64,000 nucleotides of DNA from an uncultured bacterium (GTDB lineage: Bacteria; Bacillota_I; Bacilli_A; RF39; UBA660). The stretch covers positions 77,226 to 141,225 of the forward strand of contig CAMVPB010000001.1 in the NCBI GenBank assembly GCA_947169285.1, read 5' to 3'. The notes beneath the pieces were generated by a model that worked only from the letters and a program-made list of their open reading frames with translations, searched no databases and was not told where the DNA came from. This document shows positions 1,310-13,217 of the stretch, in pieces (within the stretch, counting starts at the first letter, position 1; each line of letters begins with the position of its first letter). The position numbers were made by a program, and so were the translations under genes.

Positions 1310-2914
1310 TTAAAGTTCAAAATTCCATATAATTTCAATGTCTCTTGTATTAGTTTTCTTATCGAGTACACCTATATTTATCTTTGTTATAAATTCATCA
1401 ATTATATATTTATTTAACTCTTTAATGTGTTTATATTTTTTTATAATATTATCAATTTCTAAATTCTTATCTTGAGATTTTTCAAGATTTAGTATTTCAG
1501 ATTTTATCTCTTCATTTCTTTTTTTTAATAATTCAATATCTTTAGAATATTCACTTCTTAAATTCCTAAAATCATCATCTGTTATAAGTCCATTAATTTT
1601 ATCTTCATATAAACTTTTAAAATATAGTCTTCCTTTAGCAATTTTCTTTTCATTATCAGATAACTCTTTATTTAAATTATTAATTTTAGATTCAGAACTA
1701 TCCTTTTTAAGAAGTTCATCTTCATATCCTTTTTTTAAGAAATCTTTATTGCATTTAGTTATCAATTTATTAATCTTATCAAGTATATATTCTTCTAACA
1801 CTTCACATCTAATTGATGCATGATTAGGACATATATTATATTTTTTAGCACCCTTACATTGAAGATATGACTTTTTAGTAATTTCTCCACCTATTGTTTT
1901 AGATTTAAATGAGTTTCTCATAAATACTCTTCCACACTCTTTACAATATACTTTTTGACTTAACATATGAACTTTACCAGTTTTAAGAGGCACTTCATTT
2001 TTACCTAATCTAGTTTGAACATAATCAAATATGTCTTTATCAATTATTGGCTCATGTGTGTTATAACAAATACACCAATCAGTCTCTGGAACTTTTTTAG
2101 ATTTATGATTCTTATAACTTATACTCGTTCTTTTACCTTGAACTAAATTCCCAATATAAACAGGATTTTTAAGTATATTTGCTATAGTATCGCAATTCCA
2201 TTTATTTGTTCCATATCTTTCATATGCTAAACTTCTAAAGTTAGATCCTAGTGTTTTTTTATAAAGAGTTGGAATTAAAATATTTCTTGAATTTAAATTC
2301 TTTGCTATTGTGCTATAACCCATTCCTTTGTAATACATATCAAATATATCTTTAACTACAAAAGAAACATTTTCATCAATTATTAGCTTATGTTTATCAT
2401 TTGGATCTTTTAAATATCCATATGGAGCAAAACTACCCATATACATTCCATCTTCTCTTTTATTCTTTAATGATTTTTTAATATTGTTTGAAAGATCTTC
2501 TAAATACCATTCATTAACAAGTCCATTTATTTGCCTAGACTTTTTATTAGCTTCATTTTCAGTATCAGCATTATCTACTATACTAACAAATCTTACACCC
2601 CATTCAATAAACTTATTATGTAAATATCTTTCTATAACTTCCATATCTCTTGAAAATCTACTTTGAGTTTTACATAAAACCAAATTGATTTTTCCACTTT
2701 CACAATCTTTAATAAGTCTATCAAAATCTGGTCTAAACACTCCAGCGCCAGAATAATCATCATCAGAATAAATATCTACAACATCCCACCCTTTTTCAAG
2801 TGCATACTTCAAAAGCATACTCTTTTGATTAACTATTGATTCACTATCATCATTCTTATTTTTCTTATATCTATCTTCATCAGATAGTCTACAATAAACA
2901 CCTACCTTTTCCAA
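1310..2914 (-). CDS. large serine recombinase (resolvase catalytic domain + recombinase domain + zinc ribbon + coiled coil)
   Basis: N-terminus VGVYCRLSDEDR... with catalytic-Ser context (YCRLS), SRFSRD motif, Cys cluster CKECG...C..H, long K/E-rich coiled-coil C-terminus; 534 aa typical of SpoIVCA/phage-integrase-type large serine recombinases. Confidence 0.9.
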   Translation of the reverse strand: MEKVGVYCRLSDEDRYKKNKNDDSESIVNQKSMLLKYALEKGWDVVDIYSDDDYSGAGVFRPDFDRLIKDCESGKINLVLCKTQSRFSRDMEVIERYLHNKFIEWGVRFVSIVDNADTENEANKKSRQINGLVNEWYLEDLSNNIKKSLKNKREDGMYMGSFAPYGYLKDPNDKHKLIIDENVSFVVKDIFDMYYKGMGYSTIAKNLNSRNILIPTLYKKTLGSNFRSLAYERYGTNKWNCDTIANILKNPVYIGNLVQGKRTSISYKNHKSKKVPETDWCICYNTHEPIIDKDIFDYVQTRLGKNEVPLKTGKVHMLSQKVYCKECGRVFMRNSFKSKTIGGEITKKSYLQCKGAKKYNICPNHASIRCEVLEEYILDKINKLITKCNKDFLKKGYEDELLKKDSSESKINNLNKELSDNEKKIAKGRLYFKSLYEDKINGLITDDDFRNLRSEYSKDIELLKKRNEEIKSEILNLEKSQDKNLEIDNIIKKYKHIKELNKYIIDEFITKINIGVLDKKTNTRDIEIIWNFEL

Positions 2915-2975
2915 ATTTACACCTCACTATCTATAAGGTATAAATTTAAGTATGATGCCATTATACAACATGATT

Positions 2976-3098
2976 TCAATTTTTCAAAATCATATTGCTA
3001 TTTTCTGTTTGAATAATAATTTTTAATAACTTTTCATTAATAACATTTTCTATTTTTTCTAAATTAATATTTGTAAAATTGTATTTTGTTTCATTCAT
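2976..3098 (-). CDS. unlisted 40-aa ORF immediately upstream of the recombinase (MNETKYNFTNINLEKIENVINEKLLKIIIQTENSNMILKN); possible small accessory/RDF-like protein
   Basis: ATG-initiated ORF found by hand translation, same strand and 60 bp upstream of recombinase start; no recognisable motif. Confidence 0.2.
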   Translation of the reverse strand: MNETKYNFTNINLEKIENVINEKLLKIIIQTENSNMILKN

Positions 3099-3331
3099 AA
3101 TAAACCCCACTTTCTTCATTCTTCTTTTTAATAGCAACATATCTTTCTATGATAGTGAATTATATTAACAATAAATTTTATTCTTACAATTAATGTAAAA
3201 TGTTAAAATAACACAACAAAAAAATAATGATTTTTTTAACCATTATTTTATAAATGTTTAAAATTAAATAAGATAATCTAATCATTCCAAAAGTTATAAT
3301 TTTTGTTTTAAACTACGACTAATTATTTTTA

Positions 3332-11818: not shown

Positions 11819-12394
11819 TTATTTATGTAATGTTCTAACTTGCTCTTTTATAACATTTTCAAAAATTTTTGCATTTCCTTTATAACTTAATGGTGAAATT
11901 GGACTGGGATGATATATTGGTATTACAACAAACTCATTATAATTATAACATTGTCCAACTACATCACCAAATTTTGCATATTTAGTTTCTAATAACGTCC
12001 TTGTCACTACATCTCCTAAAGTAAGTACTACTTGTGGATTAATAATTTGTAATTGTTCTAATAAATACTTTCTACAATTGTTACTACACTCTTTTAAAAA
12101 CTTTCTATCTTTTGGGAAACACTTAATTGCCTCTAAAAAATATATATCATCTAAAGTATAATCAATTAGTTTTAATAATTTTTGTAAAACAACTCCAGAT
12201 GGTAATAATTTATAATTTTCATCATACCATGCTATTCCACTTTTTCTCCATCCATTATTTGCAGGTGCCTCTCCTAATATAACAATATCATTTTCTTTGC
12301 CAATTGAAACTGTTTTACTTTGAGGAAATTTTTCTACCAAATCTATACATAAATTACATTTATGTATTTCATTATCTATATCTGACAATTTCAT
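11819..12394 (-). CDS. uracil-DNA glycosylase superfamily protein (family 4-like, probable Fe-S type)
   Basis: 191 aa; motif A GEAPANNGWRKSG (GE[A/G]PG-type), motif B HPSPISPLS, N-terminal CNLC and later C..C residues consistent with family-4 4Fe-4S ligands. Confidence 0.7.
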   Translation of the reverse strand: MKLSDIDNEIHKCNLCIDLVEKFPQSKTVSIGKENDIVILGEAPANNGWRKSGIAWYDENYKLLPSGVVLQKLLKLIDYTLDDIYFLEAIKCFPKDRKFLKECSNNCRKYLLEQLQIINPQVVLTLGDVVTRTLLETKYAKFGDVVGQCYNYNEFVVIPIYHPSPISPLSYKGNAKIFENVIKEQVRTLHK

Positions 12395-12506
12395 TATTTT
12401 CTCCTTTATTTCTCACTATTATATACAAAGTTTTTATTTATTTCAATAAAAACCATTTAAAAAGCCACAGTCTTTTAACTGTAGCTTAAAAATTAAAATA
12501 TATTTA

Positions 12507-13133
12507 TTATGATCTCTTAAGAACTTTTGAAAGATCATCTTTTACAATTTTACCGCCATGTTCTAAATGATAGCCATCTTTTATTAAATAATTCTGTTTT
12601 AAACTAGGTCCATCATCTTCACATAATTCTAAATGGTAACCATCTTGAACTACATAAGAATAATTCTCATCTTCTTCATATTGTTCTAAATGATATCCTT
12701 CTTCTGGTGTATATGTAGATTCAACTAAATTTAATTTTTCAAGACTCCAACATTTATCAGTTTCTTCATCTAAAACATATCCAGCAGGTGCAACAGCGTA
12801 TGAAATATAAACAGTTTTATAACAACGCCCATCTTTACCTAAAATAAATCCTGCTGGTGCACAATATCTAGTTTCACCATCTTGTGTTATTGTAATTGGT
12901 TCTGTGTAAATAGTTGACTTTGTATAAAATCTATTTCCTTCTATAACATATCCGTTAACATAATCACTTTTCATAGCTTTAGAATCATTCTTTTTTTGAA
13001 GAGCTTTTGCACCGCAAAGTGTTAATCCTAAAGCTAGTGCAATACTATCAATAGCAATAGCAGTTTTTCTTAATACTTTAGATATCCTTTCTCCTTTATC
13101 AATTTCTAAAATTTCATAATTTTTATTTTTCAT
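12507..13133 (-). CDS. membrane-anchored protein with internal repeats (C-x-PAG-[FY]-x-L x2; [ED]GYHLE x3)
   Basis: 208 aa; hydrophobic segment AIAIDSIALALGLTLCGAKAL; repeats visible in translation. Confidence 0.4.
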   Translation of the reverse strand: MKNKNYEILEIDKGERISKVLRKTAIAIDSIALALGLTLCGAKALQKKNDSKAMKSDYVNGYVIEGNRFYTKSTIYTEPITITQDGETRYCAPAGFILGKDGRCYKTVYISYAVAPAGYVLDEETDKCWSLEKLNLVESTYTPEEGYHLEQYEEDENYSYVVQDGYHLELCEDDGPSLKQNYLIKDGYHLEHGGKIVKDDLSKVLKRS

Positions 13134-13217
13134 TTTAAAATATTTCCCCCTTTTAAAAAGTGTTTATATTATACCAAAAAACGTGTTAAAAGTCAATTTT
13201 AACCTCATTTTTTCTCT

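Follow-up and report, generated by a model that had tools for sequence, protein, structure and literature searches.

We describe here an integrative element in a 64,000-nucleotide stretch of DNA (the window: positions 77,226 to 141,225 of contig CAMVPB010000001.1, assembly GCA_947169285.1) from an uncultured bacterium. The element spans window positions 1271-21512 (20,242 bp) and forms an integrative island in an amidase gene of this low-GC gut bacterium. With a probability that we put at roughly 85%, the interval is one integrative element, which was inserted by site-specific attP x attB recombination within the amidase coding sequence. To judge from its relatives, it is best described as derived from a family of integrative mobilizable elements (IMEs) with serine recombinases, whose members normally carry a MobV relaxase. 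An earlier note on the same DNA had flagged positions 1310-13200 as a small integrative, non-conjugative element of about 12 kb, to the left of a LysR/coaE-coaD block and with its right boundary undefined. A serine recombinase at one end and an empty site in a close relative bear out the nature of the element. Its extent has to be corrected, however: the positions first flagged make up the left 60% of an island of 20.2 kb, which ends at 21512 next to murF, and the LysR/coaE-coaD block lies inside the inserted DNA.

The interrupted host gene encodes an N-acetylmuramoyl-L-alanine amidase with an Amidase_3 domain and LysM repeats, and it is found in the window in two pieces, both on the minus strand. 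The 3' part (1-1270) runs from His12 on (HGGKDPGASGNG..., translated HGGKDPGA...) and continues past the left end of the window. Its open reading frame (ORF) opens with '…SR-HGGKDPGASGNG', i.e. in the middle of the D-x-G-H-G-G zinc-binding motif. The missing start was located by a motif search on the minus strand, just 3' of murF, whose end (21736) lies beyond the right boundary of the element. Codons 1-11 (MALKGIVIDPG) occupy 21547-21515, with the ATG at 21547, and this 5' fragment has its own good ribosome-binding site and an upstream promoter-like motif. When joined, the two pieces match intact 467-aa proteins from public assemblies, e.g. P0001, with 97% identity and 100% coverage. In the close relative L001 the amidase is intact and the site is empty: L001 positions 9812-10042 correspond to window 21735-21506 and L001 10040-11305 to window 1266-1, the flanks being 92-96% identical. 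Since L001 aligns on both sides without the insert, the 20,242 bp of 1271-21512 are an insertion. Comparison of presence and absence among related strains, which the earlier note had proposed as a check, thus shows a region that is strain-variable, and not syntenic and ubiquitous in all relatives; besides the empty site of L001, the same site holds other cargo in L089 (8.8 kb), L088 (11.4 kb) and L005.

The ends of the insertion could be defined to the nucleotide. At attR (1271-1290, minus strand) the shared dinucleotide CA (1272-1271) adjoins the element-side arm GGGGCAATCACTATCCAGG, which is identical in L088, L089, L005 and L006. At attL (21495-21514, minus strand) the shared CA (21514-21513) adjoins the arm GGGAAGATAGAATTGCAC, which is conserved in L088 together with the next ~50 nt and is also found in L089. 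The two ends share only this CA, each arm is unique in the window, and the arms form an imperfect inverted repeat. The reconstructed attP, GGGGCAATCACTATCCAGG-CA-GGGAAGATAGAATTGCACC, is accordingly an imperfect inverted repeat with the dyad arms GGGGCAATCACTATCC and GGTGCAATTCTATCTTCC, the latter being the reverse complement of the attL arm, and the attB of L001 reads ATAGACCCTGGT-CA-TGGAGGAAAAGACCCGGG. The predicted attP junction reads GGGGCAATCACTATCCAGGCAGGGAAGATAGAATTGCACC, and the rejoined attB junction contains GACCCTGGTCACGGCGGAAAAGACCC. Arms arranged around a shared CA are the anatomy expected of a serine-integrase attP. Across all subfamilies of related elements only CA is common to the att sites, with no long direct repeat between attL and attR. 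The crossover falls on the first two bases of the zinc-binding His codon (D-x-G-H-G-G), in the target site GGT-CA-TGG-AGG that codes for G-H-G-G of Amidase_3, and the exact cut would lie at the CA itself. Scans for tRNA genes and Rfam families gave no tRNA target and no RNA family within the element.

The recombinase gene (1310-2914, minus strand) lies at the attR end of the element, with its 3' end toward the amidase fragment. The 534-aa product is a large serine recombinase, with resolvase, Recombinase and zinc-ribbon domains and a C-terminal extension, in agreement with its first reading from the translation. All of its Pfam matches exceed their cut-offs: Resolvase (PF00239, 7e-23, 81.8 bits against a cut-off of 23.3, residues 6-157, with the motifs YCRLSDEDR and SRFSRD present), Recombinase (PF07508, 5e-25, 88.1 bits), Zn_ribbon_recom (PF13408, 4e-11, 43.7 bits) and DUF4368 (8e-7, 29.7 bits). 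It also matches a PHROG integrase family at 2e-99. Its nearest named relative is TndX (34% identity), and copies that are 96-99% identical are found at the same junction in L005, L006, L088, L089 and L161. Directly 5' of the recombinase gene lies a small ORF (2976-3140, minus strand) with a conserved 40-aa core, MNETKYNF...KLLKIIIQTENSN, that starts from 3098. A homologous ORF of 40-48 aa (…YNV…KLLxxIxxxEN…) is present in 21 of the 22 complete members of the family. We regard it as a candidate recombination directionality or accessory factor; excision would be carried out by the same recombinase, and the conserved small ORF may assist as the directionality factor.

Several observations weigh against this interpretation, or against parts of it. 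The composition of the element is host-like (GC 24.5% versus 25.4%, tetranucleotide r=0.99); GC, GC skew and tetranucleotide profiles do not differ between element and host, and the tetranucleotide profiling suggested earlier as a check is uninformative here. The base beside the CA is G in attL and C in attR, a difference that is compatible with a 2-bp crossover. As regards present-day activity, an excised circle or attP junction had 0 matches in viral contigs. As regards the transfer route of the window copy, no origin of transfer (oriT) was identified, and the relaxase is missing: Pfam, NCBIfam, PHROGs and PADLOC gave no Mob, Rep_trans or other relaxase match in the element, and tblastn with the Mob_Pre proteins of the family gave no relaxase remnant in the window. 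Finally, an in-frame TTG at attR could yield a variant amidase, 'MGQSLSRHGG…', for which there is no obvious ribosome-binding site.

Could the element end where the earlier note had placed its limit? Gene orientation switches in the interval 13.2-14.1 kb, housekeeping is the usual role of coaD and coaE, and CoaD homologues that are 84-90% identical are common in the lineage and abundant in records labelled 'MAG: Bacilli bacterium' (MAG, metagenome-assembled genome). One might therefore prefer an element of ~12 kb that ends near 13200 with LysR/coaE-coaD as its flank or, in a variant of this idea, regard the 20-kb interval as an assembly chimera. We find either version hardly credible. The empty site of L001 joins 21506 directly to 1266, the arm at 21495-21512 with its ~50 nt is conserved with the L088 attL, and the block at 16.1-20.4 kb is reproduced in an independent assembly, L169. 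No att-like sequences were found inside the element; tandem accretion of several elements is for the same reason unsupported. In addition, the coaE-coaD cassette itself recurs in four or more unrelated contexts, as a rule beside a recombinase and Mob_Pre.

This cassette (13218-16012) consists of a LysR regulator (13218-14117, minus strand) that is divergent from an operon of three plus-strand genes: dephospho-CoA kinase (CoaE, 14132-14791; TIGR00152, 81.7 bits against a cut-off of 65.55-65.6), pantetheine-phosphate adenylyltransferase (CoaD, 14760-15254; TIGR01510, 165.8 bits against 103.3) and a phosphodiesterase of the metallo-beta-lactamase (MBL) fold (15251-16012), the last with weak Apyc1 and RNase Z-type matches. 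CoaD and CoaE thus both score above the NCBIfam equivalog cut-offs. One and the same CoaD sequence (P0244) belongs to a LysR-coaE-coaD-MBL-PHP cassette whose surroundings are unrelated on either side. This longer cassette is 95-99% identical at the nucleotide level across L170-L174 (about 8470-12300 in each), where its neighbours are another serine recombinase and Mob_Pre (L170/L173, L171), recombinase remnants (L174) or tyrS and a methyltransferase (L172). Window 13239-16010 is 82.5% identical to it at the nucleotide level and has no PHP gene. As a near-identical cassette is found in unrelated flanks, it moves between element families, and its sequence contexts mark LysR/coaE-coaD as mobile cargo. 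The cassette usually resides within another serine-recombinase and Mob_Pre element, which also bears CHAT or SDH-protease genes. It could serve coenzyme A (CoA) salvage from 4'-phosphopantetheine, or act on nucleotide-derived signals.

The window copy belongs to a family with a protein-constrained target. A metagenome scan with the recombinase returned 80 loci. At 54 of these, an amidase fragment lies behind a recombinase that is 53-97% identical, in the same orientation and usually 31-59 nt away, and in all 54 the fragment starts with precisely the His codon of HGG(x)D(P/S)G; in the same scan no recombinase of less than 50% identity was found at the amidase His-codon junction. A matching 5' fragment (M…(I/V)(I/V)(I/V)D(A/P)G…) lies upstream at ~21 loci. 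Complete elements measure 7.6-11.4 kb, so the window copy (20.2 kb) is the largest family member seen. When the proteins of 22 complete elements were clustered, the core of the family was found to comprise the serine recombinase (22/22), the 40-48-aa ORF directly upstream of it (21/22), a winged helix-turn-helix (wHTH) protein of the HTH_36 type (20/22), a usually divergent XRE-type repressor (18/22), a Mob_Pre/MobV relaxase of ~430 aa (PF01076, 2e-30; 17/22) and an 87-aa protein (16/22). With a recombinase and a MobV relaxase in its core, the family is therefore one of IMEs of the serine-recombinase and MobV type, a combination of which Tn4451 is the classical case (PMC5704250). Typical members would depend on a helper conjugative system for their transfer.

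Within this family, the window copy forms a subgroup with L088/L161 and L089, which has neither the relaxase nor the 87-aa gene and carries instead a gene for a protein resembling single-stranded DNA-binding protein (SSB). The L088 element (11.4 kb) has an XRE and ImmA-like pair at its left end. L089 is a very close relative (amidase 97% identical) with an 8.8-kb element and entirely different cargo, and L005 has a 97% identical recombinase and the small ORF, yet other cargo. Since L089 and L005 carry different cargo, the minimal constant unit consists of the small ORF and the recombinase, and everything to the left of that unit is exchangeable. As to the features by which IMEs are recognized, the window element has its own integration/excision module, att sites and an empty site in a relative, and lacks a type IV secretion system; it also lacks a relaxase of its own. 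The window copy and its closest relatives being without a relaxase, it would either be mobilized only in trans, via an unrecognised oriT, or now be inherited as a genomic island. Mob-type relatives have a single conserved hairpin close to attL (GGTACTT…AAGTATCTTTT); it was considered as an oriT and rejected, since its position is independent of mob, it resembles a terminator and it is absent from the window copy.

The closest parallels among known elements are instructive in their differences. Tn4451/Tn4453 (TnpX with the MobV-type TnpZ) are likewise small and non-conjugative, with one large serine recombinase and a 2-bp core crossover, and typical members of the amidase family share with them the Mob_Pre/MobV relaxase (PMC5704250). 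Tn4451 has, however, low site specificity, whereas the amidase family is strictly confined to one codon of one gene; moreover, the window copy has no relaxase, is three times larger, and its recombinase is distant (TndX, at 34%, is the best named match). IMEs with serine integrases that integrate inside genes and disrupt them have been described (PMC5704250), and the streptococcal rumA elements resemble the present family in the disruption of a conserved gene, the very short direct repeats and the variable cargo (PMC5704250). The amidase family differs from them in its hosts (uncultured low-GC Bacilli), its target (the Amidase_3 His codon) and its backbone (wHTH protein and 40-48-aa ORF). The iOriT islands (Ares-Arroyo et al., 2026, preprint) are bounded by an integrase and att sites, carry defence cargo and have no relaxase or mating-pore genes, as does the window element, but that class is defined by an oriT in six nosocomial species, and none was identified here. 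The IME literature that we surveyed does not name the amidase as an integration target. As far as the literature was searched, the His codon of Amidase_3 is a new target, and the family that inserts at this catalytic codon itself appears to be undescribed.

The earlier note had also called the region satellite-like. In line with this, the element is small, with an integrase at one end and a Rep-like wHTH protein, and PHROGs matches point to integrase and replication-initiator families, as would be expected of a defective prophage or a satellite akin to phage-inducible chromosomal islands that needs a helper phage for packaging. This origin is very improbable. No phage or satellite hallmark and no match in phage records was found: Pfam, PHROGs and NCBIfam gave no capsid, portal, terminase, packaging-interference, primase-helicase or lysis gene, viral contigs yielded a single recombinase of 41% identity and nothing for the 695-aa cargo protein described below, and 17 of 22 relatives carry a conjugative relaxase. 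The note's statement that structural and conjugation genes are lacking holds for the whole element, in which Pfam, PHROGs, NCBIfam and PADLOC detected no capsid, terminase or type IV secretion system gene anywhere.

The subgroup of the window copy is further characterized by a compact module, in which a wHTH gene, its leader, phased repeat arrays and the SSB-like gene may serve together in regulation or replication. The wHTH protein (98 aa, DnaD_N / HTH_36 type; 9043-9339, minus strand) was recognized by Pfam (DnaD_N, 27.5 bits against a cut-off of 27) and PHROGs ('replication initiation protein', 3e-9). After the recombinase, its gene is the most conserved of the family, with homologues 0.5-0.8 kb upstream of the recombinase in 20 of the 22 complete elements. 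It is preceded by a leader of ~90 nt (9375-9466, minus strand), conserved in L088 and more loosely in L089, which opens with a promoter-like box (…GATATGGTAAAGTGGA…) and closes with an intrinsic terminator (9400-9375) a short way ahead of the ribosome-binding site. A terminator in this position suggests control of the attenuation type. Upstream lie two arrays on the minus strand: array B (9484-9537) consists of five TTGCAT at an exact spacing of 12 bp, and array A (9676-9785) has four ACTTC(C/T)T repeated every 12 bp (9743-9785) and then the promoter-like box once more. No such phased 12-bp arrays arose in dinucleotide shuffles, and the tandem arrays upstream of a small wHTH gene are thus as first reported. 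The box, of ~35 bp (…GATAAGATATGGTAAAGTGGA…ATTATAAG), occurs twice in the window (9375-9466 and 9676-9712), each time behind a different 12-bp array. L088 has a single box behind 8.5 copies of the ACTTCCT unit. A general promoter scan found 164 sites against 169 expected and is useless in DNA of 25% GC.

The SSB-like protein (154 aa; 8463-8927, minus strand) is found only in the subgroup of the window copy, L088 and L089. It had first been read as an SSB-like OB-fold protein; the resemblance stands as a possible one, with a Pfam SSB score of 20.1 bits, below the cut-off of 26, and PDB profile matches to SSBs that are non-significant (E 0.3-1). A single-sequence AlphaFold2 (AF2) model of the protein was unusable (predicted local distance difference test, pLDDT, 41) and was discarded. 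A canonical host SSB is encoded at 62595-63071, in the order rpsF-ssb-rpsR; the window lies close to a parAB / origin-proximal region. With this canonical SSB present, the protein of the element is therefore an extra, highly divergent copy.

Does this module make the element an integrated plasmid-like replicon, as the words 'integrated plasmid remnant' had implied? The wHTH protein would then be the Rep and the 12-bp arrays would be its iterons, with the SSB-like protein as an aid to replication of the circle, so that the element would exist integrated or as a free episome. The DnaD_N and 'replication initiation protein' matches, the arrays, which are far beyond chance and common to L088, and the leader with its terminator, which resembles attenuation-type rep control, are all in keeping with this idea. 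However, the wHTH protein has 98 aa only and contains neither a helicase-loading nor a nicking domain. L089 and the Mob-type members have kept the wHTH protein but not the arrays, and L005, with its 97% identical recombinase, has no wHTH or SSB-like gene within 4 kb. Searches of 72,556 plasmids and 50,697 phage records, furthermore, returned nothing for the SSB-like protein. The Rep-like protein and the iteron-like arrays are thus what remains of the plasmid proposal, a possibility that we think improbable; it is compatible with, and not exclusive of, insertion as an IME-derived element.

What are the consequences of the insertion for the amidase? Integration leaves the first 11 codons, along with promoter and ribosome-binding site, detached from the remainder of the gene; cut off in this way, the amidase is most probably inactive while the element is integrated, and would be restored upon precise excision. 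The variant that might start at the TTG, 'MGQSLSR-HGG…', concerns the window subgroup and would be without the first beta strand. A new N-terminus supplied by the element was rejected as a general feature, since an in-frame start is missing in most subfamilies and in some the His codon is immediately preceded by a stop. When the intact amidase was searched for in one genome per species, most of 80 species representatives proved to have the intact gene. The matches, uncultured MAGs of low GC, bear labels such as Bacilli, 'Tenericutes', Clostridium sp. CAG:302 or CAG:1000 and come from ruminant, reindeer, chicken and human guts, with one closed chromosome of 1.46 Mb; from their names we take them to belong to the GTDB order RF39 and its neighbours.

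Fifteen nucleotides upstream of the amidase start, the motif ttaACA-N16-CATAcAaTA is found in 67 of 74 orthologous loci (50-100% aa identity), and it is kept while the surrounding sequence diverges (window 21560-21600, minus strand; L001-L086). The -10 consensus of sigma-K/sigma-E promoters is CATA…TA, which the motif fits; it also fits a sigma-A promoter (TTnACA-17-TAcAAT). Nearly all Mob-type members (L091-L131) have a hairpin, GGTACTT-loop-AAGTATC with a T-run, at 60-80 bp from attL within the element, both where mob is the neighbouring gene and where it is not. This hairpin probably acts as a terminator that stops transcripts entering from the amidase promoter. The window copy lacks this hairpin, and the first gene met by transcription from the amidase promoter is that of the SoFic protein. 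A second large serine recombinase family (31-37% identical to that of the window) adjoins LysM-repeat fragments of the same amidase gene in L016 (186-2539), L044 (10001-10700), L014 (11248-14193), L067, L070 and L060. Here the break in the gene falls at 'YYTVKKGD|' (residue ~204) or within the final LysM repeat, and the insert in L014 is ~2.8 kb, barely more than the recombinase. The amidase gene is thus a hot spot, into which at least two unrelated serine-recombinase families insert.

The position of the element raises the question of a developmental role, in which a CwlC-like amidase for mother-cell lysis would be rebuilt by excision in the mother cell, as it differentiates terminally during sporulation, while the element is kept in the germ line. 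The element lies inside a coding sequence, with a large serine recombinase at its boundary and a small conserved ORF beside it. The amidase lacks a signal peptide, and its catalytic domain is N-terminal, an architecture that we take to be like that of CwlC, and the conserved promoter motif fits the sigma-K/sigma-E -10 region. Genes of the spoVA type (spoVAC, spoVAD and spoVAEB) were found on a single related contig, L171. Gene-intervening elements of this kind are known, and gin is a non-prophage example of 28.6 kb with GirC and GirX (PMC5595907). The likeness extends to gin (in gerE), skin (in sigK) and SPbeta (in spsM), all with a large serine recombinase inside a coding sequence and a small accessory ORF, and in particular to gin, which is also non-viral and of similar size. 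Against this, the amidase motif can also be taken for an ordinary sigma-A promoter and is not enriched elsewhere in the window; in none of 21 elements does an AC-N16/17-CATAnnnTA motif precede the small ORF or the recombinase, so that, unlike gin, skin and SPbeta, the recombinase module has no sporulation-type promoter before it. No sporulation gene was recognised in the 64-kb window, and the MobV relaxase of most family members, which marks the relatives as mobilizable elements, points to horizontal transfer and not to a domesticated developmental switch. We therefore consider a gene-intervening element of a sporulation gene unlikely.

Apart from the module described above, the element carries exchangeable cargo, which comprises SoFic, NERD, a LysR-NUDIX operon, the LysR-CoaE-CoaD cassette, a UDG operon and two LRR-tailed proteins (UDG, uracil-DNA glycosylase; LRR, leucine-rich repeat). 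In the left part, every substantial ORF at 1310-13133 is on the minus strand, as noted earlier. A 743-aa protein (3332-5563) has an N-terminal region, a central 'WCT…GDFYVY' domain and a tail of LRR-like repeats of 22-24 residues that matches internalin A at 9e-5 (phmmer); it is 94% identical in L088 and L161. A 695-aa protein (5972-8059, minus strand) combines an N-terminal HExxH domain, a helical region, a 'WCT…GDFYVF' domain and a BspA-type tail of 20-residue LRRs. The two had been called LRR-tailed paralogs: both are indeed LRR-tailed, but only a central domain of ~120 aa is shared (34% identity, E=2e-12). The 695-aa protein has hundreds of homologues (52-91% identical) in this lineage, with tails of variable length. 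It has no Pfam domain and no structural match for its N-terminal 540 residues; its AF2 model is good (pLDDT 83.5), and a Foldseek search of the PDB gave no match below E=0.1. A co-conserved ORF of 57 aa at 8034-8207 overlaps the gene, and 695-aa gene and overlapping upstream ORF of ~55 aa form a conserved two-gene unit (window 5972-8207; L168 9850-12445). At least one homologue, preceded by the small ORF as here, has ddl and murI as neighbours in an ordinary stretch of chromosome; the 695-aa protein is cargo, not backbone.

Between these two genes lies a 69-aa ORF with an RxxxxH motif, RSNYIH (5669-5878, minus strand), which a tblastn search with an intact 326-aa protein of L131 aligned with residues 202-291 of the latter at 28% identity. 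Because it matches part of an intact protein, it is a gene remnant, as the description 'HEPN-like fragment' had implied, but its HEPN character found no support from hidden Markov models. Farther to the right, a cargo operon (9940-12394, minus strand) encodes a DUF4160-containing protein of 202 aa, proteins of 175 and 180 aa and, at 11819-12394, the UDG-superfamily glycosylase that had been recognized from the translation and is now established by PF03167 (5e-20). It is followed by a 208-aa protein (12507-13133, minus strand), in whose translation an N-terminal hydrophobic segment and (D/E)GYHLE repeats can be read, and which gave no family match.

In the right part, beyond the LysR/coaE-coaD cassette, a protein with a NERD domain and a topoisomerase-type zinc ribbon (16095-16871, minus strand; Pfam 4e-28 and 6.5e-16) is followed by a block (16875-20201) in which a second LysR regulator (16875-17774, minus strand) is divergent from genes for two Cys-rich proteins of 224 and 379 aa (17804-18478 and 18478-19617), each with a C-x-H…C-x2-CG motif, and, at the end of this operon, a NUDIX hydrolase (19620-20201). 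The same arrangement is found in L169. The 379-aa protein has no recognisable domain and 98 representative homologues among 1.84 billion sequences. Located between NERD and SoFic, the Cys-rich and NUDIX operon (17804-20201) may represent a module of defence or counter-defence that has yet to be described.

Counted from attL, the first gene of the element encodes a 354-aa Fic-domain protein (20264-21328, minus strand, i.e. in the orientation of the amidase promoter), and its domain composition is that of the SoFic defence architecture: the PADLOC SoFic model is matched end to end (2e-113, residues 8-352), and the Pfam domains Fic_N (PF13784), Fic (PF02661) and SoFic-like_C (PF21248) are present. 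SoFic was reportedly identified as a single-gene anti-phage defence by Millman and colleagues in 2022. The window protein differs in that it stays under the NCBIfam SoFic equivalog cut-off (380.6 versus 550 bits); it is a candidate defence gene, known from sequence. Besides SoFic and a weak match to the NERD/PglW domain, PADLOC made no defence assignment.

The chromosome outside the element has features of its own. An Abi_2 (abortive-infection-like) gene is found at 43416-44354 (Pfam 5e-42), and at 33094-34817 the gene for lysyl-tRNA synthetase is immediately preceded by a T-box leader (123 bits). At 38714-42276 a 960-aa protein with a lamin tail and a CotH kinase domain adjoins a protein with a VTC domain; in Bacillus, CotH acts as a kinase of the spore coat, but the CotH/VTC pairing also occurs in non-sporulating bacteria. 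Between genes that adjoin each other in the window (25062-25065), L001 has an extra 2 kb (4221-6231) with glmS (GATase and SIS domains, 588 aa), a strain-level indel that affects a normally essential gene.

Our analysis provides an exact boundary for an element in an unannotated MAG lineage, by which 20.2 kb of natively composed DNA, including coaD and coaE, become recognizable as horizontally acquired cargo. The status of coaD and coaE as cargo matters for metabolic reconstructions of reduced-genome gut Bacilli. It also brings to light a recombinase family with a protein-constrained target, for dozens of whose members attB/attP pairs could be inferred, and these pairs are raw material for serine-integrase tools. 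The coaE-coaD contexts indicate that whole operons move between different IME families. It is tempting to speculate further along two lines, both of which we consider unlikely. In one, the amidase would be sigma-K/E-dependent and CwlC-like, and the recombinase family (54+ loci) and the LysM-targeting family would act as developmental or phase switches of spore release or cell separation in reduced-genome gut Bacilli. In the other, the LysR-CoaE-CoaD-phosphodiesterase(-PHP) cassette would be the host's only route to coenzyme A; if so, the genes for the final two steps in making an essential cofactor would be passed around within this lineage by mobile elements. Since the amidase gene is hit by at least two unrelated recombinase families, carriage of such elements may alter cell separation or lysis in these uncultured bacteria.

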